A stretch of DNA of 64,000 bases from Gemmatimonadota bacterium (GTDB taxonomy: Bacteria > Gemmatimonadota > Gemmatimonadetes > Gemmatimonadales > Gemmatimonadaceae), in contig JAZJZK010000002.1 of the NCBI GenBank assembly GCA_040389905.1, forward strand, positions 23,401-87,400. The letters run 5' to 3'. This document shows positions 14,545 to 56,992 of this stretch, piece by piece. Both the position numbers and the translations under genes were made by a program. Positions within the stretch are counted from its first letter, which is position 1. The number at the start of each line of letters is the position of its first letter. The notes under the pieces are model-generated. The model was not told where the DNA came from. It was given only the letters and a program-made list of their open reading frames with translations, and searched no databases.

Positions 14545-14635
14545 TGTCACCCCGAGCGAGCGAAGCTTTGTCGAGGGGTCTGCACCTCGTATGCCGGCCG
14601 CAAGTGCAGATCCCTCGACTTCGCACGGGATGACA
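14545..14635. repeat. REP-like inverted doublet
   Basis: TGTCACCCCGAGC...TCGAGGGGTCTGCAC followed by GTGCAGATCCCTCGA...CGGGATGACA. Confidence 0.85.
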
Positions 14636-16502: not shown

Positions 16503-16666
16503 GGCACATTGAACGCGGATTGAGCGGATTGACCAGCGAAACAGTGATTGGTTCGGCGAGGCACGTCAGCAGCAGTTCACCGTGAAGTCTTCAAGCATGT
16601 GCTTCTCGTGTTTCACGCTTGATCATTGTTTTCTTTTCGATCCGCTCGATCCGCGTTCAATGTGCC
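16503..16666. repeat. Gene-less inverted-repeat element with CGGAT 9-bp units (MITE/REPIN-like)
   Basis: Left GGCACATTGAACGCGGATTGAGCGGATTGA..AAACAGTGAT pairs with right ATCATTGTTT..TCGATCCGCTCGATCCGCGTTCAATGTGCC. Confidence 0.85.
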
Positions 16667-23278: not shown

Positions 23279-23321
23279 ACGGCGCCACACAAGCCTCGCC
23301 ACGGATTGAGGAACGCATCAA

Positions 23322-23395
23322 ACGGATGCAACGGAAACAACCAGATCAAGCGACTCTATCGAGCAGCTTGATCCGGCTGTTTCTGTCGCATCCGT
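23322..23395. repeat. Inverted repeat hairpin, CGGAT-type
   Basis: ACGGATGCAACGGAAACAACCAGATCAAGC pairs with GCTTGATCCGGCTGTTTCTGTCGCATCCGT. Confidence 0.8.
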
Positions 23396-23494
23396 AGAAC
23401 CCTCTCCTAGACCCAATGCTGTTCAGTTACGGTGAGACCCCGCCGACGCGGCTTTGTTTTCGATTGTCGCTCGGCGAAGAGCAAAAGCAAAGCC

Positions 23495-23688
23495 TACCGC
23501 AGAGGACGCAGAAGCTCTGCCCTCCGTGCACTCATTTGTGCGCCGGACCGCAGAGGGGCGCAGAGGACGGCGGAACAGATTTAGCGGGAGTTCGGTATCC
23601 GGTCTCTCGCAGTCCCTCTGCGACCCTCTGCGGTCCGGCGCATCGGAGGTCGCTCAGGGTGCGCATGGCCTCCGCGTCCTCTGCGGTA
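23495..23688. repeat. Nested inverted repeats of CAGAGG-type 9-bp units
   Basis: Outer TACCGCAGAGGACGC / GCGTCCTCTGCGGTA; inner TGCGCCGGACCGCAGAGGG / CCCTCTGCGGTCCGGCGCA (23539-23642). Confidence 0.88.
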
Positions 23689-23768: not shown

Positions 23769-23891
23769 TGTCACCTCGACCGAGCGTGGACTCGAGCGCG
23801 TGCATCCCAAAGCCAAAGCACGTGCAGGCCCTTCGCGGAGTTTACCCTCGAGGAGCGCAAGCGACGAAGGGCTCAGGGCGACAAAACGAGC
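23769..23891. repeat. Degenerate REP-like doublet
   Basis: TGTCACCTCG start, GTGCAGGCCCTTCG...CGAAGGGC internal stem, CTCAGGGCGACAAAACGAGC end. Confidence 0.75.
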
Positions 23892-23932
23892 GGGCGAGCA
23901 GCCGACATGCAGTCCTCTGCGTGCAATTCAGT

Positions 23933-25840
23933 TCACTGTTTGTGCGAGCCATTCTCCCGAATTCTGCCGATACCAACTCCGCTCGACGTGTAGAGCGCCA
24001 AGGCGATTCGCCCCGCAAGCAAATCATTCCTCTCGACCTCACCGAGTGTAAGCGTGCCACGCGCTGACACAGCACCGGGCCCAGCGAGCCGCCGTAGCAC
24101 TGGCCCCTTGTGCGCTGCACTATCCCGGTCGAGGCTCACGCCAAACAGCCGATCGGCCGGGACGCCCGCGACTCGCACGACGTAGTCGAGGGACCGGCGC
24201 GTCGCGTCGAAGGTAAGAACAGCCTGTGCGGTTGCCGACCCGACCTTCGCATTCGCCCGGAACTGCCGAGGCGCCGGCGCCTTGCCCGCTACGAGCGGAG
24301 GCGTTGTGCTCGGCGCGCGCCTTGGATGCACTGACTGTTCATAATCGTACGCGAGTGCGAGCAACCGGGCGTCAGCCAGCGGGCGGCCGAGCATCTCGAG
24401 TCCGATTGGAAGGCCATCCGGGGTAAATCCCGCCGGCATGCTCAAGGCAGGCAATCCCGTAACCGCGCTGAGTTGGCAATTTGCGCCGCGCTGGGGCTCG
24501 TTGATCAGCGCTGCCTTTCGGCGCATCGTCGGATACACGAGCGCGTCGTAGCGATTCGAGTCGAGGAAGGCGGCCACGAGATCGCGCGCAACCTTCCGTC
24601 GCGCAAGCGCGGCGCGATACGCGTCGCTATCTCGCGTGCCCATCGCGTCTCGCCTGCGGAAGGCGACGTCCAATGCGGTGTGATACAGCCCGCGCTCGAG
24701 GATCTCTGTCAGCGACTTCACCGGCGCGCTCGGAATGGTCGCAAGGAAATCGCGCAGATCGAACTTGAATTCATAGTCGATGACGCCGGCCGCGCCGATG
24801 AGGCTGTCCAGGCTGGGAATGACGACATCCGTCACGACGGCGCCGCGTGCCTTCATTCGTTCGAGCGCGGCACGAACGACCCGGGCGCCCTCCTGATCAT
24901 CCGCTTCGGTGCCAAAATGGGCCGTGAGCACGGCGAGACGCGCGCCGCGCAACGACGCCGAGTCGAGCGACGCAACGAAGCGAGGAAGTGGCTTGCCGTC
25001 GAGCAGTCGAGTTGCCGAGTCAGCCGGATCGGCTCCGATCGTCGCGTCGAGCGTGATCGCGAGGTCCGTCACGGTACGCGCGAGTGGTCCTCCCACATCC
25101 TGCGTGTGCGACAGCGGAACGATGCCACTGATACTCGACAAACCCTTGGTCGGTCGCAGCCCGAAGAGATTGTGGACCGCCGAGGGAATTCGAATCGATC
25201 CGCAGGTGTCGGAGCCCATGGCAACGGCGGCAAAGCTCGCGGCGATCGCGGCTCCGCTACCTCCGCTGGAGCCGCCCGGATTCCGGTCGGGATCGTACGG
25301 ATTGCAGGTCTGGCCGCCGAGGGAACTGATGCTCGTGATGCCGGCCGCGAGCTCATGCATGTTCGACTTCCCAAGAATGATGGCGCCGGCGTCGCGGAGT
25401 TTCTGAACCTGGAAGGCGTCGAAGCCGGTGCGCAAGCCGGCGAGGGCGATCGAGCCTGCCGACGTCGGCATGTCGGTGGTGGAATAGTTGTCCTTGAGGA
25501 TGATGGGAATGCCATGCAACGGACCACGAAACTTCCCGCTGCGACGCTCACCGTCGAGCCGCGATGCTTCGGAACGAGCGTTCGGATTGAGCGCGATCAT
25601 CGCATTCAGTGAGGGTCCGCGATGATCGTAGGCTGCGATGCGCGCGAGGTAAGCGTCGACGAGCGCGAGCGACGTGAGACGGCCGGCGTTCATCGCGGCC
25701 TGCAGGTCGGGAATGCTCGCTTCGTAGACGATGTCCGTCGCTCCGTTCGACGGTTGCCGCTGCCCGAGTGCGTTGTCAGGCGGAAGACAAAGTGCGAAGG
25801 CCACAAGAACGAACACTTGACGATGCAACGTTTTGGTCAT
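23933..25840 (-). CDS. Secreted amidase-signature enzyme with extra C-terminal (CHRD-like) domain
   Basis: GPLHGIPIILKDN, GGSSGGSGAA, GSDTCGSIRIP; start MTKTLHR with signal peptide. Confidence 0.88.
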   Translation of the reverse strand: MTKTLHRQVFVLVAFALCLPPDNALGQRQPSNGATDIVYEASIPDLQAAMNAGRLTSLALVDAYLARIAAYDHRGPSLNAMIALNPNARSEASRLDGERRSGKFRGPLHGIPIILKDNYSTTDMPTSAGSIALAGLRTGFDAFQVQKLRDAGAIILGKSNMHELAAGITSISSLGGQTCNPYDPDRNPGGSSGGSGAAIAASFAAVAMGSDTCGSIRIPSAVHNLFGLRPTKGLSSISGIVPLSHTQDVGGPLARTVTDLAITLDATIGADPADSATRLLDGKPLPRFVASLDSASLRGARLAVLTAHFGTEADDQEGARVVRAALERMKARGAVVTDVVIPSLDSLIGAAGVIDYEFKFDLRDFLATIPSAPVKSLTEILERGLYHTALDVAFRRRDAMGTRDSDAYRAALARRKVARDLVAAFLDSNRYDALVYPTMRRKAALINEPQRGANCQLSAVTGLPALSMPAGFTPDGLPIGLEMLGRPLADARLLALAYDYEQSVHPRRAPSTTPPLVAGKAPAPRQFRANAKVGSATAQAVLTFDATRRSLDYVVRVAGVPADRLFGVSLDRDSAAHKGPVLRRLAGPGAVSARGTLTLGEVERNDLLAGRIALALYTSSGVGIGRIRENGSHKQ

Positions 25841-25865
25841 CGAAGTACCGTGAGGTCGGAAACGC

Positions 25866-25894
25866 TTGCGTTTGCCTGCCGCGACCACCACAAT
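25866..25894 (+). promoter_or_regulatory. Putative sigma70 promoter TTGCGT-N17-CACAAT
   Basis: Consensus-like hexamers with exactly 17-nt spacing, 25 nt upstream of the small ORF. Confidence 0.45.
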
Positions 25895-25919
25895 AGTCCC
25901 TCCAGAACTTCGAGAGTCA

Positions 25920-26003
25920 ATGATGAAGAAGCCATTCGTTGCGCCCGTACTCACGAGCGAAGACCGACTCACCACGCTTGGTAGCTCGTCTGTTCCAACC
26001 TGA
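25920..26003 (+). CDS. 27-aa small ORF MMKKPFVAPVLTSEDRLTTLGSSSVPT, RiPP-leader-like
   Basis: Hand-translated. GAGAG upstream, promoter-like sequence before, intrinsic terminator after, [Y/F]xxPxL motif. Confidence 0.6.
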   Translation: MMKKPFVAPVLTSEDRLTTLGSSSVPT

Positions 26004-26024
26004 GTACCAACCGCGCACTTGAAA

Positions 26025-26054
26025 TCGCCAGCCCCTTTTGGGCTGGCGTTTTTC
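26025..26054 (+). terminator. Rho-independent terminator
   Basis: CGCCAGCCC stem / GGGCTGGCG followed by TTTTT. Confidence 0.85.
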
Positions 26055-26140
26055 ATTCAACGCCGAGCGAGCATAGCCGACGAACGTGAGGCACAATACG
26101 TTTGTCGCCGCAGCCAACTAAATGGAGTAGATCCGGATCG

Positions 26141-27418
26141 ATGACCGAGCTCGAGGCTGGTCCAGGAAATAGGGGCCACGCGCCCGCACTGGGGCGCTGG
26201 TGGCAACTGTTTCTCGGCGTGATCTGCATGTCGATGATCGCCAACCTGCAATACGGTTGGACGCTCTTCGTCAACCCGATCAACGACAAGTATCACTGGG
26301 GGCGGCCCGCTATTCAGGTGGCGTTCACGATCTTTGTGCTGGTCGAGACGTGGCTCGTTCCCGCGGAAGGCTACCTCGTCGACCGAGTCGGGCCCAAGAT
26401 GGTGGCGGTCGTATCGGGGATACTGGTCAGCGCCTCGTGGGTCATCTTTTCGTACGCCGATTCGCTGTTCCTGTTCTACGTCGGGGCGGCGGTCGGCGGA
26501 ATCGGTGCTGGTGGTGTGTATGGCGCGTGCGTTGGAAATGCGCTCAAGTGGTTTCCAGACCGGCGTGGGCTCGCAGCCGGACTCACCGCGATGGGCTTTG
26601 GCGCGGGGTCGGCGCTCACGGTCTTTCCCATTGCCGCGATGATCAAGACGGCCGGCTACGAGGCGACGTTCTTCAAGTTCGGCATCGCGCAGGGCGCCGT
26701 CGTGTTCGTGCTCGGGTGGTTCCTGCTCGCGCCGAATGCGGGCCTCAAGGTGCCAGGAAAGTCAGGTGCGGCGGCTGTGGCAGCAACGAAAGAGTACACG
26801 CCGACAGAGATGCTCCGGACGCCGGCATTCTGGCTCATGTATCTCATGTTCGTCCTCATGGCCACTGGTGGTTTGATTGCGACGGCGCAGCTCACGCCGA
26901 TCGCCAAGGACATGGGCATCGCCGAGTCACCGGTGTTCATCCTGGGGATCACGCTGCCGGCGCTGACGTTCGCGCTCTCGATTGACCGTGTGCTGAACGG
27001 CATCAGCCGACCGTTCTTTGGTTGGATGTCCGACCATATCGGACGCGAGAACACGATGTTTGTCGCATTCGGGCTCGAAGGGGTGGCCATTCTTCTTCTG
27101 AACCAGTTCGGCGGTTCGCCGCTTGCGTTCGTGCTGCTCACCGCGCTGGTCTTTTTCGGATATGGAGAGATCTACAGTCTCTTCCCAGCCACATGCGCCG
27201 ATACGTACGGTCGTCGCTTCGCGTCCGCGAACGCCGGGCTGCTCTACACCGCGAAGGGAACAGCGTCATTGCTGGTGCCGTTGAGCAGCCTGATGGCGGC
27301 CGCGATGGGCGGATGGCACGCGGTCTTCATGGCGGCCGCCGTGATGAACCTGCTGGCCGCGGCGCTGGCGCTCCTTGTGCTCAAACCGATGCGGACGCGC
27401 ATGACGAACGGGACATGA
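26141..27418 (+). CDS. oxlT: Oxalate/formate antiporter (MFS)
   Basis: IANLQYGWTLFV.PI, GNALKWFPDRRGLAAGLTA, RPFFGW.SD.IGRENTM, NAGLLYTAKG. Confidence 0.9.
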   Translation: MTELEAGPGNRGHAPALGRWWQLFLGVICMSMIANLQYGWTLFVNPINDKYHWGRPAIQVAFTIFVLVETWLVPAEGYLVDRVGPKMVAVVSGILVSASWVIFSYADSLFLFYVGAAVGGIGAGGVYGACVGNALKWFPDRRGLAAGLTAMGFGAGSALTVFPIAAMIKTAGYEATFFKFGIAQGAVVFVLGWFLLAPNAGLKVPGKSGAAAVAATKEYTPTEMLRTPAFWLMYLMFVLMATGGLIATAQLTPIAKDMGIAESPVFILGITLPALTFALSIDRVLNGISRPFFGWMSDHIGRENTMFVAFGLEGVAILLLNQFGGSPLAFVLLTALVFFGYGEIYSLFPATCADTYGRRFASANAGLLYTAKGTASLLVPLSSLMAAAMGGWHAVFMAAAVMNLLAAALALLVLKPMRTRMTNGT

Positions 27419-28422
27419 AGATCGCCGTCGTGGGTGCCGGTGCGATCGGCGGGTACCTGGGAGGGTGGCTGTCCGCCGCTGGGGAGGATGTCACCTTCAT
27501 TGCGCGAGGGGCGAATCTCGACGCGATTCGGGCGAATGGCATGCGCGTCGTCGGTGAGGATGGCAGGGAGGTCGTCGCAACCGACACGCGCGCCTACGCG
27601 GACATGGGCGAGGCGGGCCCGCACGACGTCGTGTTGCTGACCGTCAAGGCGCATCAGGTGGCTGCAGTCGCCGAGGATCTTGGGCAGCTCTGTCATTCGG
27701 GGACGACGATCGTCACGATGCAGAACGGCATTCCATGGTGGTACTTCCACAAGCACGGTGGGCCATACGATGGTGCTGCTGTTCGCGCCGCTGATCCGGA
27801 TGGTGTCATCAGCCGTCATGTGGATTCAGAACGAATTATCGGGTCGGTTGTCTATCCCGCGGCAACGCTCGTCGCGCCCGGTGTTGTGCATGTTGTGGAG
27901 GGCCGGCGCTTTGCATTGGGTGAATTGAACGGGCAGTGGTCCGCGCGTGTGGAGGCGATTTCACAGCGTCTCGTGAAGGCGGGTTTCAAGGCGCCGGTCA
28001 TCGCGGACATTCGCAATGAGATCTGGCTCAAGGTGTGGGGCAACATGAGCTTCAACCCGATTAGCGCGCTCACGCATGCGACCCTGGTGGATTTGTTGCA
28101 GTTTCCGCTCACTCGGGAACTCAGCATTCAGATGATGAGGGAGGCGGAGGCGATTGCCGGGAAGCTCGGCATCACGTTCCGGGTTGGTATCGACAAGCGG
28201 ATCGCTGGCGCCGAGAAGGTGGGGGCGCACAAGACGTCGATGTTGCAGGATGTGGAGTCGGGGAAAGCGATCGAGCTCGAAGCGTTGGTTGGTGCGGTGG
28301 TCGAGCTTGGAGTTCTCACTGAGACACCGACACCGCATATCGATGCCGTGTATGCGTGTGCGTCGTTGCTGGCGAAGACACTCTCAGATTCTGGCGGACG
28401 TCTGATTATTGCTGGTCCTTGA
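27415..28422 (+). CDS. panE: 2-dehydropantoate 2-reductase family; probable oxalyl-CoA reductase (PanE2-like) by context
   Basis: GAGAIGG, QNGIPWWYF, WLKVWGN..FNPISAL, HKTSMLQD; ATGA overlap with oxlT. Confidence 0.88.
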   Translation: MKIAVVGAGAIGGYLGGWLSAAGEDVTFIARGANLDAIRANGMRVVGEDGREVVATDTRAYADMGEAGPHDVVLLTVKAHQVAAVAEDLGQLCHSGTTIVTMQNGIPWWYFHKHGGPYDGAAVRAADPDGVISRHVDSERIIGSVVYPAATLVAPGVVHVVEGRRFALGELNGQWSARVEAISQRLVKAGFKAPVIADIRNEIWLKVWGNMSFNPISALTHATLVDLLQFPLTRELSIQMMREAEAIAGKLGITFRVGIDKRIAGAEKVGAHKTSMLQDVESGKAIELEALVGAVVELGVLTETPTPHIDAVYACASLLAKTLSDSGGRLIIAGP

Positions 28423-29013
28423 CTGGCCACAAAGACGAAGGGCTCATGCGGATTCGACGGATTGAGCGGATTTCACGGGACGCTTCTCATTGGCGGTGCA
28501 GACAAGTCGGTAGAACTTTGCTTCGGGACCAAAGTGCAGGACCATGCCCACTTCAATATTGGTGGATTTGAGGTAGTTGTACGTTTGGCGAATAGAGATC
28601 TTGTTCATTTTGTACGTCGATTTGGTTTCGACGATGAGTTTGTCGTCGACGATGAGATCCATGCGTTGCGTGCCAAGTTCGTGACCCTTGTACATGACAC
28701 AAACCCTGTACTCTCGCACGACCTTATGACCGCGCTCCCGCAACTCGATTTCTAACGCCTTTACATACAGCCGCTCCAGAAATCCGAACCCGAGGGTGTT
28801 GTACACCTCGTAGAAGGCACCGATCACAGAGCGTGTGAGCCGCTCTTCGAGTAGTTGTCCTTTAGGCATGACCGAATCTTGCGAATCAATGCCTGCCATG
28901 CGTCATCAAAAAACAACGGCCGCGGTGCAAATCCACGCAACGAAACTCGGAACCATCCGCATAATCCGCTAAATCCGCAGAATCCGCATAGAACCCTTCG
29001 TCTTTGTAGCCAG
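28423..29013. mobile_element. Inverted-repeat-bounded GxxExxY cassette inserted in the oxalate operon
   Basis: Left CTGGCCACAAAGACGAAGGG versus reverse complement of the right end CTGGCTACAAAGACGAAGGG (19/20), each followed by four 9-bp CGGAT units. Mobility is inferred. Confidence 0.7.
28444..28869 (-). CDS. GxxExxY protein (PD-(D/E)XK nuclease-like)
   Basis: IGAFYEVYNTLGFGFLERLY (GxxExxY), RMDLIVDDKLIVETK, Q..NYLK. Alternative start 28899. Confidence 0.93.
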   Translation of the reverse strand: MPKGQLLEERLTRSVIGAFYEVYNTLGFGFLERLYVKALEIELRERGHKVVREYRVCVMYKGHELGTQRMDLIVDDKLIVETKSTYKMNKISIRQTYNYLKSTNIEVGMVLHFGPEAKFYRLVCTANEKRPVKSAQSVESA

Positions 29014-29015
29014 CG

Positions 29016-30548
29016 ATGAGCCATTCACCCCAAACGATCACAGATCTCTTGAAGGCAGGCGCAGATGACGCGCCCGCCCTCAGCACCCCTGGCGGAACGC
29101 CACTTTCGTACAACGCGCTCCGCCAACTCGTAGCCGACACTGGCAAGGCGCTCAACGAAAAGGCCATCGGCGCCGGCGACCGTGTCGCGATCGTCCTCGA
29201 CAACGGCCCGGAAATGGCCGCCGCGTTCCTCTGTGTCGGCGCCGCGGCAACAGCGGCCCCGCTCAATCCGAACTACCGCGCCGACGAATACGAGTTCTAC
29301 CTCACCGATCTGCGTGCAAAGTTGCTCATCGTCGGAGCAGGAAAAGAATCGCCCTCGATCGGCGTGGCAGAAAAACTCGGCGTTCCCATCGCCCGCCTCA
29401 CGCCCCATCCAGACAAGGGCGCGGGTAGTTTCACAATCGACTTCGGTGATTTCTCGCCGACAGAAGGCGCTGGTGCAAGTCGAGAAGTCACCCCCGACGA
29501 CACAGCACTCGTGCTGCACACGTCCGGCACGACCTCCCGCCCGAAAATCGTTCCGCTCGCCCAGAAGAACATCTGTGCCTCGGCGCGCAATATCCGCCAG
29601 TCACTCGCGCTCACGGCGGACGATCGCGGCATGGTCATCATGCCACTCTTTCACATTCACGGACTCATCGCCGCGTTGCTCGCGCCGCTTTCCGCAGGCG
29701 GTGAGGTGTCATGTACGACAGGGTTCAACGCACTGAAGTTCTTCACCTGGCTCGATGAAGTGAAGCCGACGTGGTACTCCGGTGTGCCCACGATGCATCA
29801 GGCGATCCTCCTTCGCGCGCCCAACAACGCCGACATCATCAAGTCACACCGACTGCGCTTCATCCGTTCGTCGTCGTCCTCATTGCCGACACGAGTGATC
29901 ACGGAAGTCGAAGCGCTATACGGTGTCCCGATTATCGAAGCGTACGGGATGACCGAGGCGGCACATCAAATGGCCACGAATCCGCTTCCACCGAAAGTTC
30001 GCAAGCCGGGTAGCGTGGGCCCATCCGGCGGGCCGGAAATCCGCATCGCCGACGAGACCGGCGCCACGGTGCCTGCCGGCGCAACCGGCGAGATCGTCAT
30101 CCGCGGACCCAACGTCATGACGGAGTACGAGAACAATCCGAAGGCCAACGCGGAAGCGTTCTACGGCGATTGGTTCCGCACCGGTGATCAGGGCGTGATG
30201 GACGAGGACGGTTACGTCAGCATCACCGGGCGCCTCAAGGAGATCATCAACCGCGGCGGCGAGAAGATCTCGCCACGCGAGGTGGACGAGATCATCATGG
30301 AGCATCCCGGCGTCCACCAATGCGTTACCTTCGGCATGCCGCACGACATGCTCGGCGAAGACGTCGCGGCGGCCGTCGTGCTCAAGCAAGGCGCTGACGT
30401 CACCGACAAGGAACTCCGTCAGTTCGCCGCCGTTCGTCTCGCGGACTTCAAGGTTCCGCGAAAGATCCTCATCCTCACGGAGATTCCGGTGGGTGCCACC
30501 GGAAAGCTCCAGCGCATTGGCCTCGCACAGAAACTGGGACTCGGATGA
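29016..30548 (+). CDS. Acyl-CoA ligase, probable oxalate--CoA ligase
   Basis: LHTSGTTSRPK, MPLFHIHGL, EAYGMTEAAHQM, WFRTGDQG, INRGGEKISP, TGKLQR (AAE3/Pcs60-like). Confidence 0.88.
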   Translation: MSHSPQTITDLLKAGADDAPALSTPGGTPLSYNALRQLVADTGKALNEKAIGAGDRVAIVLDNGPEMAAAFLCVGAAATAAPLNPNYRADEYEFYLTDLRAKLLIVGAGKESPSIGVAEKLGVPIARLTPHPDKGAGSFTIDFGDFSPTEGAGASREVTPDDTALVLHTSGTTSRPKIVPLAQKNICASARNIRQSLALTADDRGMVIMPLFHIHGLIAALLAPLSAGGEVSCTTGFNALKFFTWLDEVKPTWYSGVPTMHQAILLRAPNNADIIKSHRLRFIRSSSSSLPTRVITEVEALYGVPIIEAYGMTEAAHQMATNPLPPKVRKPGSVGPSGGPEIRIADETGATVPAGATGEIVIRGPNVMTEYENNPKANAEAFYGDWFRTGDQGVMDEDGYVSITGRLKEIINRGGEKISPREVDEIIMEHPGVHQCVTFGMPHDMLGEDVAAAVVLKQGADVTDKELRQFAAVRLADFKVPRKILILTEIPVGATGKLQRIGLAQKLGLG

Positions 30549-31693
30549 CACAGACACCGCCTCCGCCGCTCAATCCTCCCGAGCGTCTTCTCATGGGACC
30601 CGGCCCGAGCAATCCGGACCCTCGCGTGCTCGCCGCGATGGGTGCGAATCCCGTCGGTCACCTCGATCCGTATTTCGTCGACCTGATGGACCATACGATG
30701 GGCGCCCTTCGCGGCGTCTTTCGCACGGCGAACCACCACACCCTGCCGATTTCTGGCACCGGGTCTGCGGGCCTCGAAGCGATCATGCTCAACTTGCTCG
30801 AGCCAGGCGACAGTGCGGTCGTCTGCGTGATGGGCTACTTCGGACATCGGCTTGCCGAGCTCGCGCGGCGCTCGGGCGCAGATGTCCGCACCATCGAAGC
30901 AGGACCGGGCGAGATCATCGATCCCGCCGCCCTCGACGCGATGCTTACCGAGCGACCAGCGAAGCTCGTTGCCTTCGTGCATGTCGAAACGACGACGGGC
31001 GCGTGCCAGCCGATCCAACCGATGGTTGCCGCCGCAAAGAAGCACGGCGCACTGGTGGCGATGGACTGCGTCACGTCGCTCGCCGGTATCGAGCTCGAAA
31101 TCGACAAGTGGGGTGTCGACGCCGCTGGTTCGTGCACCCAGAAGGGGCTCGGCGCACCGGCTGGATTGGGTCCGATCACCGTAGGGCCCGCCGCGATGGC
31201 TGCGGTGCGCGCACGGAAGCAGAAGCCGCACACCTGGTACCTCGATCTCTCACTGCTCTTTCAGTATTGGGGCGAAGACGGCGCCACGAAGAAGCGCGCC
31301 TTCCACCACACCGCGCCTATCCAGAGTATCTACGGCATTCACGAGGCGTTGCGGCTCGTTCTCGAGGAAGGGCTCGAGGCACGCTGGGCGCGCCATCAGG
31401 CGGCGCACGAAACGCTGCTGCGCGGACTTGATCGTCTCGGGTTATCGCTCTTCACGCCCGCCGCAAACCGGTGCGCGACGATCAACGTGATCAACACGCC
31501 TGAGGGCATCGACGAAGCGAAGGTCCGCACCCGGTTACTGGACCTTGGCGTCGAAATGGGTGGAGGCCTTGGTGTGCTGGCGGGGAAGGTGTGGCGAGTT
31601 GGCGTGATGGGCTACAACGCGCAGGACGCGCGCGTCGAGCGTTTTGTCGGTGCGCTGGAGGAAGCTCTGTCTGCGGAGGGGTGGAGAGCGTAA
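30545..31693 (+). CDS. Alanine/serine--glyoxylate aminotransferase (class V PLP)
   Basis: RLLMGPGPS, SGTGSAG, HVETTTG, DCVTSL, TQKGL, HHTAP; ATGA overlap. Confidence 0.92.
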   Translation: MTQTPPPPLNPPERLLMGPGPSNPDPRVLAAMGANPVGHLDPYFVDLMDHTMGALRGVFRTANHHTLPISGTGSAGLEAIMLNLLEPGDSAVVCVMGYFGHRLAELARRSGADVRTIEAGPGEIIDPAALDAMLTERPAKLVAFVHVETTTGACQPIQPMVAAAKKHGALVAMDCVTSLAGIELEIDKWGVDAAGSCTQKGLGAPAGLGPITVGPAAMAAVRARKQKPHTWYLDLSLLFQYWGEDGATKKRAFHHTAPIQSIYGIHEALRLVLEEGLEARWARHQAAHETLLRGLDRLGLSLFTPAANRCATINVINTPEGIDEAKVRTRLLDLGVEMGGGLGVLAGKVWRVGVMGYNAQDARVERFVGALEEALSAEGWRA

Positions 31694-31700
31694 CAACAGC

Positions 31701-31742
31701 AGGTGCAGACCCCTCGACTCGCTTTGCTCGCTCGGGGTGACA
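31701..31742 (+). repeat. 42-bp REP-like unit
   Basis: AGGTGCAGACCCCTCGACTCGCTTTGCTCGCTCGGGGTGACA. Confidence 0.88.
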
Positions 31743-53695: not shown

Positions 53696-53763
53696 AACCA
53701 CGGAGGACACAGAGGACACGGAGGACGCAGAGAACCATGCAGTCCTCTGTGTCCTCTGTGGTT
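53696..53763. repeat. Inverted-repeat hairpin of 9-bp CAC(A/G)GAGGA units
   Basis: AACCACGGAGGACACAGAGGAC pairs with GTCCTCTGTGTCCTCTGTGGTT. Confidence 0.88.
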
Positions 53764-56812: not shown

Positions 56813-56992
56813 ACCGCAGAGGACGCGGAGGAGCAGAGGAACGCAGAGGAAAAGGGAGGTGCAGGCCCTTCGCTGCGCTCAGGGCGACAAAACGAGCACG
56901 TGTCACCCCGAGCGAGCGAAGCGAGTCGAAGGGTCTGCACCTGCTTTCCGCGTTTCCTCTGCGAACCTCTGCTCCTCTGCGTCCTCTGCGGT
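56813..56992. repeat. Complete nested palindrome: CAGAGG 9-bp arms enclosing a REP-like doublet
   Basis: Outer ACCGCAGAGGACGC / GCGTCCTCTGCGGT; inner AGGTGCAGGCCCTTCG / CGAAGGGTCTGCACCT (56857-56942). Confidence 0.9.

Follow-up and report, generated by a model that had tools for sequence, protein, structure and literature searches.

Results

The GxxExxY element and its host operon

The window analysed here, a stretch of 64,000 nucleotides from the genome of a Gemmatimonadota bacterium (G000), contains an operon at 26102–31693 encoding an oxalate/formate antiporter, a PanE-family reductase, an acyl-CoA ligase and a class-V aminotransferase. The antiporter, the product of the first gene (26102–27418, + strand), matched TIGR04259 above cut-off. 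The ketopantoate-reductase-family (PanE/ApbA) protein (27415–28422, +) and the AMP-binding acyl-CoA ligase (29016–30548, +) were assigned by profile matches. Presumably, the operon serves the uptake of oxalate and its reduction via oxalyl-CoA to glyoxylate. Its distribution in the genus is patchy: a search for the ligase at E 1e-100 gave matches in 4 of 55 genomes.

An element at 28423–29013, composed of two inverted arms and a single gene, separates the PanE-family gene (panE) from the ligase gene. Both other junctions of the operon are ATGA overlaps (27415–27418 and 30545–30548), as had been stated in an earlier reading of this DNA (the sequence-only reading). The left arm (28423–28480, +) consists of a 23-nt head followed by four 9-bp units with CGGAT cores, of which the final unit is degenerate, and was classified as type A. 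The right arm (28955–29013, −) contains four ATCCG units and a 23-nt head and is inverted relative to the left arm. The units are marked by CGG at 28449/58/67/76 in the left arm and by ATCCG at 28955/64/73/82 in the right arm. Two blocks of the arms pair with each other, one of 23 nt (28423–28445 with 28991–29013, 91% complementary) and one of 27 nt (28446–28472 with 28963–28989, 89% complementary). The outermost 20 bp of the two arms match at 19 of 20 positions. The CGGAT cores are retained in both arms, and the linkers between them differ from one arm to the other. Folding of the element yielded a z value of −5.1 as RNA and −4.7 as DNA, which 0 of 20 shuffles equalled in either case.

The gene enclosed by the arms (28444–28899, −) is antisense to the operon and encodes a GxxExxY (PDDEXK_3) protein of 151 amino acids. 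Its last nine codons and the stop codon lie within the left arm, which thus encodes the C-terminus KSAQSVESA*. An alternative ATG at 28869 would give a form of 141 amino acids, the version found in the protein database. This open reading frame is the sole cargo of the element and matched PF13366 and TIGR04256 only. The arms, the match of their outer ends, the unit positions, the antisense cargo and the C-terminus encoded by the left arm were all reproduced from the sequence-only reading. No sigma-70 promoter was found, and a comparison with Rfam gave no match.

An assembled contig of run X1, possibly from the same sample, covers 23864–31730 with zero differences and at approximately single-copy depth. 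A joint skipping the element was not found among the matches listed, which are contigs of one study. The genome contains a single copy of the element, whose gene is saturated at synonymous sites relative to its closest relatives. Judged by its sequence, it is an old copy and not a young or active one.

The insertion junction in related genomes

The locus was compared with that of 15 relatives with a syntenic panE–ligase junction. None of the 15 carries the GxxExxY gene there, which bears out the earlier claim of an insertion. The junction is short in 14 of these relatives, and an ATGA overlap is present in 5 of the 15. The 15th relative, G345 (L216, G345:C54), has about 200 bp of extra DNA here: a nonamer hairpin, unrelated and without a gene, starts directly after the same panE stop. 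From its sequence, this hairpin represents an independent insertion at the same panE–ligase spot. The GxxExxY unit is likewise likely to be an insertion between panE and the ligase gene.

Measured between the final conserved Ile of PanE and a fixed ligase residue, the spacing is 53 nt in two relatives with the ATGA overlap vs 647 nt here, corresponding to a net gain of 594 bp. Other relatives show other junction spacings. Since the DNA of the relatives around the junction is only about 69–75% identical, the junction was assessed by codon spacing alone and not against a base-precise empty site. A net insertion of 594 instead of 591 bp implies that the present panE stop codon (28420–28422, +) may have come with the element and that the original stop was probably the TGA at 29017–29019. 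If the insert comprises 28420–29013, the Pro codon at 28417–28419 continues in frame to 29014–29016 and is followed by a stop at 29017–29019, which overlaps the ligase ATG. The likely original ATGA overlap of panE and ligase would then lie at 29014–29019 (+), with its TGA in the panE frame. In 32 A-type head matches, the position of 28421 is most often G (18 of 32) and that of 28422 most often A (17 of 32). The GA of the present stop therefore fits the arm-end consensus, and the consensus of the left arm may extend 2–3 nt leftward into this codon; the stop could also be a decayed 3-bp duplication.

The element at 28423–29013 was found as described in the sequence-only reading, with ends that are less clean than claimed; the positions 28423 and 29013 could each be off by about 3 nt, and the right end is equally frayed. 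Because of this frayed end, the varied spacings and the identity of only about 69–75%, the 594-bp boundary is suggestive only. According to the sequence-only reading, deletion of 28423–29013 leaves a tight TGA-CG-ATG junction. This is probably not the original junction, as the relatives imply a net insertion of 594 and not 591 bp.

The GxxExxY protein

The protein was assigned to PF13366 (E 7e-34, 117 bits vs a cut-off of 22) and TIGR04256 (E 2e-32, 112 bits vs a cut-off of 35). Its closest relatives are mostly from Gemmatimonadaceae genomes, and the host is therefore probably a member of this family. The eponymous motif is present as G39-E42-Y45, and a D...ExK core is formed by D81, E91 and K93. 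In an alignment of 38 sequences, from which L188 (internal stop) and L191 were left out, D81, E91, K93 and Q105 are invariant, and E42 and Y109 are conserved in at least 90%; the invariance of GAFYEVYN is an artefact of the retrieval pattern and was ignored. For Cas4, RecB motifs I–III and a QxxxY motif are described in the available part of PMC8610317. E42, D81, E91-K93 and Q105-Y109 correspond to these motifs as given there. A conserved cysteine column, of which Cas4 has four for its Fe-S cluster, is absent from the 38 sequences.

A structure model was confident over residues 20–130, with a mean pLDDT of 85.6. The best Foldseek match was the Cas4 protein Sso0001 (E 4e-4), and matches to Cas4 profiles were weak (E 0.003–0.006). 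VIA-align gave a best Z of 8.9, a modest similarity scattered over many restriction-like folds, and tRNA splicing endonucleases were among the weak fold matches. Values of Z 8.9 and below across many restriction-like folds indicate a nuclease scaffold and not a particular substrate. A solved homologue was not found by sequence, nor were a PHROG of known function and an integrase domain in the protein. We infer a putative minimal metal nuclease of the RecB/Cas4 type. In the eight pairs with computable dS, dN/dS was about 0.05–0.19, and the gene is, by this comparison of coding sequences, under purifying selection.

Repeat families in genome G000

The sequence-only reading had proposed a gene-bearing member of a repeat-plus-nuclease family. 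Both the gene-less copies and the arm subtypes A, B and C found in the genome agree with this proposal. G000 contains exactly three PF13366 matches, namely paralogue A in the window, B on contig C14 and C at C15:74863–75222. All three are boxed by inverted arms, each of a different subtype. Diagnostic patterns detected 16 A, 90 B and 120 C arms (226 in total) and none in three shuffled genomes, while three-unit arrays numbered 93 in the genome vs 1–3 in three shuffles. Inward-facing pairs of less than 700 bp amounted to 76, of which 74 are of the same type. Almost all of them (73 of 76) span 64–207 bp, and the remaining three (477, 477 and 581 bp) are the three GxxExxY genes. Many arms are unpaired (A 11, B 44, C 19). 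When the limit for the span was raised to 3 kb, one further same-type pair (807 bp, with an unrelated ORF inside) and two mixed composites were obtained. Thus, the GxxExxY paralogues account for three of the four same-type pairs of at least 300 bp. At G000:C5:77448–78254 a low-complexity repeat ORF of 144 amino acids lies between B arms belonging to outward-facing doublets on each side.

According to a rough purpose-made gene caller, 0 of 158 gene-less pairs lie inside called genes, and 65 of 153 are located between convergent genes vs 347 of 2004 wide junctions. The sequence-only reading had noted the lack of a target-site duplication. Target duplications were not in excess among the 48 C and 22 B pairs compared (best case 6 vs 3.0 at at least 5 bp, p 0.08), which agrees with this observation for families B and C; at the window element itself the decayed 3-bp duplication mentioned above is possible. 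Between gene-less and gene-bearing copies only the arms and inner shoulders align reliably. An arm of a gene-less C copy is no more similar to its partner than to the arms of other copies (37.9 vs 39.1); for B the difference was marginal (p 0.04).

A further family, D, has CAGAG nonamers and is, with 254 arms and 88 short pairs, the largest nonamer family of the genome. A gene-bearing copy of family D was not detected in the 84.6%-complete assembly. The same assembly gave no match to the Y1 transposase family PF01797, and the sole cargo of the window element matches PF13366/TIGR04256 only; the sequence-only reading had seen no DDE or HUH transposase. The window itself contains a gene-less family-C hairpin (16511–16658), whose cognate gene is G000:C15:74863–75222, and a composite (23309–23685) of a family-B arm (23309–23337) and a family-D arm with CAGAG units (23670–23685). 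Family D is represented by a gene-less hairpin (53699–53760), an arm pair with SRM-like palindromes between its arms (56815–56990) and an arm match at 1847.

All 13 A arms with a GACCCAG-type head (for example at C7:330572, C8:214339, C10:85328, C20:112949 and C30:82108) have an invariant CGCGTTGG box about 22–25 nt outside the head, beyond a variable spacer. A arms with the GACGAAGG head of the window are without the CGCGTTGG box. The box may serve as an additional binding site or as a target motif. A genus-wide search for the outer CGCGTTGG box with a loose pattern gave a count equal to the control.

Other small genes of G000 are also boxed. An Ssn-like GIY-YIG gene (G000:C13:67419–67631) is boxed by SRM-like palindromes, the core motif of which has 290 matches in the genome. 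Matches to the SRM-like motif in the window are located at 14546, 14634, 31741, 32190, 56888 and 56902. Two of five PF05635 four-helix-bundle genes (G000:C6:201658–201972 and C9:40401–40712) are boxed by their own, different inverted arms (scores 69 and 89), one of which consists of tandem units. These PF05635 genes are possibly a parallel gene-plus-repeat system. GxxExxY is thus not the only kind of gene in this genome to lie between inverted repeats, since the Ssn-like gene and two PF05635 genes have arms of their own.

GxxExxY loci in other genomes

Within the genus, 48 of 55 genomes contain the PF13366 family; such tallies of genus genomes include the unpublished G012, and no claim depends on G012 alone. 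For the flanks, loci of this genus and of GTDB contigs from several phyla were collected. Beforehand, 16 loci were skipped (own-genome or ligase loci, two gene-less loci and two of the unpublished G012). Of 181 loci with a match 169 were kept; 156 were unique and near full length, and 144 had full flanks. Inverted arms with a score of at least 30 were detected at 102 of the 144 GxxExxY loci. As controls, the same score was reached by 2 of 294 windows that had been shifted and, in direct orientation, by 25 of 144 loci. The flanks of other GxxExxY genes behave as the sequence-only reading had predicted, with 42 of the 144 loci below the arm threshold.

In a quick tree built from 140 of the 144 loci, 13 of 15 loci with CAGAG-type arms fell into one clade of 23 proteins (SH-aLRT 99). 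Since kin share labels, this clade shows clustering and not proven co-evolution, and the cross-genome counts are not independent. Genome G041 (97% complete) has one gene of the CAGAG clade, 78 CAGAG matches and 0 CGGAT triplets. G057 and G017 have 12 and 9 CGGAT triplets, respectively, and no PF13366 match. These two genomes and the gene-less family D indicate that the repeats can occur without a detected gene. In 31 armed close relatives the own partner arm scored a median of 73 vs 21 for the arms of other elements, and it was the best match in 23 of the 31.

Among 109 usable metagenome A-type arms, a GxxExxY gene was found on the inner side in 6 cases and on the outer side in 0. The same arms formed 41 short pairs and 5 long pairs, 3 of which enclose a GxxExxY gene. 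In viral contigs, 124 CGGAT-triplet stretches were found, of which 118 were unique and usable; these showed 0 GxxExxY genes and 7 short pairs.

The genomic surroundings of 77 GxxExxY loci fall into 59 neighbourhoods. Among the close relatives (24 loci at at least 55%, the window's own included) none of the others shares the neighbours of the window. Both neighbours are common to 15 locus pairs, including paralogue B with G005 (about 62% protein identity), which shows that movement is rare. Taken together, these sequence comparisons indicate that gene-bearing units move, rarely, and are then inherited under purifying selection.

Discussion

A putative nuclease gene within its own repeat family

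The comparisons described above demonstrate how the element is built, that it was inserted, that each gene is paired with its cognate repeat subtype and that the gene is under selection. The balance tips slightly towards a unit of 591–594 bp that is the gene-bearing copy of an intergenic hairpin family, its gene likely encoding a nuclease that recognises and spreads the hairpins. The two parts of this explanation differ in strength. Some partnership of the GxxExxY nuclease and the repeat is very probable, whereas the chances of a mobilising role are about even.

The following course of events is conceivable. The nuclease would bind the repeated CGGAT cores once the arms fold back, either in single-stranded DNA or in a cruciform, and would nick the DNA near the hairpin. 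The hairpin, rarely together with the gene, might then be copied by host gap repair or template switching into DNA just beyond gene ends. Such copying would leave the ends frayed and would not produce a regular target duplication. Gene-bearing copies would persist for a long time, one per subtype, like RAYT and ssnA genes. Conserved cores with variable linkers, frayed ends and the absence of regular duplications fit this nick-and-copy proposal.

Alternative explanations

Instead of mobilising the hairpins, the nuclease could be part of a domesticated host system which recognises the cognate hairpins but restricts or shapes recombination with incoming single-stranded DNA in an SsnA-like manner, the repeats being spread by host processes. 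One copy per subtype, purifying selection and long residence would be expected of such a system, as would the wide occurrence of the family in the genus (48 of 55 genomes), and SsnA in Neisseria, as far as covered by the available part of PMC11893778, provides a precedent. It is at odds with the 59 neighbourhoods among 77 loci and with the 15 of 15 orthologous junctions that are free of the gene, which indicate that gene and arms moved together. We regard this explanation as unlikely; it is not exclusive of the preferred one. More improbable are MITE-like hairpins that are moved by another enzyme and have captured GxxExxY genes as cargo between their arms. Each of the three paralogues lies between arms of its own subtype, and together they make up three of the four same-type pairs of at least 300 bp. 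In addition, the arm type tracks the protein clade, the gene is invariably on the inner side of the arm (6 vs 0), and neither a Y1 transposase (the only transposase family searched) nor an excess of target duplications was found. All this speaks against mere cargo, which is favoured by the lack of a gene for family D in the assembly, by the 42 of 144 GxxExxY genes without strong arms and by the other small genes that are likewise boxed by inverted repeats.

An element acting at the RNA level was also considered. Here the operon mRNA would contain a long stem formed by the arms, comparable to the intervening sequences with an ORF in 23S rRNA; the stem would be excised or would hide the insert, and the protein would act on, or be made from, that RNA. 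The arms indeed close a long stem in operon-sense RNA (z −5.1), gene-less copies prefer the 3' ends of genes, and tRNA splicing endonucleases occur among the weak fold matches. However, the active-site residues are those of a RecB/Cas4-type DNase, and the gene is antisense to the operon and therefore not producible from excised operon RNA. Furthermore, there is no Rfam match, and the linkers differ between the arms while the CGGAT cores are kept, which points to recognition of a motif more than to perfect pairing. We give this explanation little credit. An ordinary gene with accidental flanking inverted similarity or local duplication, or an assembly artefact, is suggested by the degeneracy of the arms and by nothing else. 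The shuffle, shifted-window and folding controls, and a contig that spans the locus without differences (possibly from the same sample), exclude it for practical purposes.

Significance

In a survey of 2012, the available part of which lists PF13366 as of unknown function, the family forms mixed clades ascribed to multiple transfers (PMC3424549). A published description of a link between GxxExxY and hairpins was not found in a search that excluded subscription journals and supplements, and the term GxxExxY occurred in passing mentions among the matches listed. New at this locus are the 15 orthologous junctions without the gene, the second insertion at the same junction, and the three paralogue–repeat pairs plus an orphan family in one genome. 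The link to cognate hairpins provides PF13366 with a specific, testable substrate. Moreover, G000, in which three paralogues with one arm subtype each occur beside an orphan repeat family, constitutes a natural comparison of specificity.

The preferred explanation, a hairpin family spread by its own nuclease, can be generalised. GxxExxY proteins may be the mobilising enzymes of widespread, undescribed elements without a transposase, in which a Cas4-like nuclease reads a phased nonamer array and each paralogue has its own hairpin population, with several pairs per genome. We put this forward tentatively and hold its chances to be somewhat below even. If true, hundreds of intergenic hairpins per genome would be explained, and the principle of repeat plus nuclease would reach a third fold, after HUH (RAYT) and GIY-YIG (Ssn). 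GxxExxY proteins would also be a supply of very small nucleases that are sequence-specific and differ in the sequences they recognise.

Comparison with known systems

Several known systems share single features with the element. Like ORF-bearing 23S rRNA intervening sequences (described in the accessible part of PMC4990558), it has an ORF enclosed by a long stem. Unlike these, it is located between two protein genes and antisense to the host transcript, and its product has a nuclease fold and not a four-helix bundle. With IS elements and MITEs, in the available part of PMC3733652, it shares terminal inverted repeats around one gene and short non-autonomous relatives. It differs from IS elements in having no DDE transposase among the family matches, no excess of target duplications and frayed ends, as well as one copy per subtype and saturated synonymous sites. 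The protein resembles the Cas4/RecB nucleases in motifs I–III and QxxxY, as these are presented in part of PMC8610317, and in its best Foldseek match Sso0001. In contrast to Cas4, it is shorter, is without conserved Fe-S cysteines and has no adjacent cas gene in the window.

The analogy to RAYT and REPIN drawn in the sequence-only reading fits, while Ssn with its NTS repeats is the closer published analogue. In REP/REPIN–RAYT systems, according to the parts available of PMC3116915 and PMC3733652, a low-copy enzyme gene has inverted-repeat flanks and gene-less doublets are dispersed. As in REPINs, the inverted doublet is the dispersed unit (74 of 76 inward pairs of the same type). Long vertical persistence and several enzyme–repeat pairs per genome are common to the GxxExxY elements, RAYT/REPIN and TIRtron/TIRYT (for the latter see also 10.1101/119735). 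Unlike RAYT and TIRtron, the cargo is a PF13366 protein and no HUH or tyrosine transposase, and the repeats are nonamer arrays and not REP palindromes.

Ssn with NTS/SRM combines a small single-domain nuclease gene and hairpin repeats on both sides that also form a dispersed gene-less family, as reported in the available part of Chenal et al. 2025 (PMC11893778). According to the same text, Ssn homologues pair with their own repeat variant, and the authors remark on the IS-like layout of repeat, gene and repeat. The GxxExxY gene is similarly flanked by repeats of a dispersed family. Its enzyme, however, is PD-(D/E)XK/Cas4-like and not GIY-YIG (cd10448), and the four GIY-YIG matches of the genome are on other contigs. 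Whereas the Ssn repeat is a self-palindrome of 20–50 nt, the GxxExxY arm is a tandem nonamer array that pairs with the opposite arm. Furthermore, the GxxExxY ORF extends into the arm, and cleavage is predicted only. Since the enzyme is neither GIY-YIG nor HUH, the element belongs to neither Ssn nor RAYT/REPIN/TIRtron. Its features are best read as those of an Ssn- or RAYT-like partnership of a repeat and its cognate nuclease, with a putative third class of enzyme.
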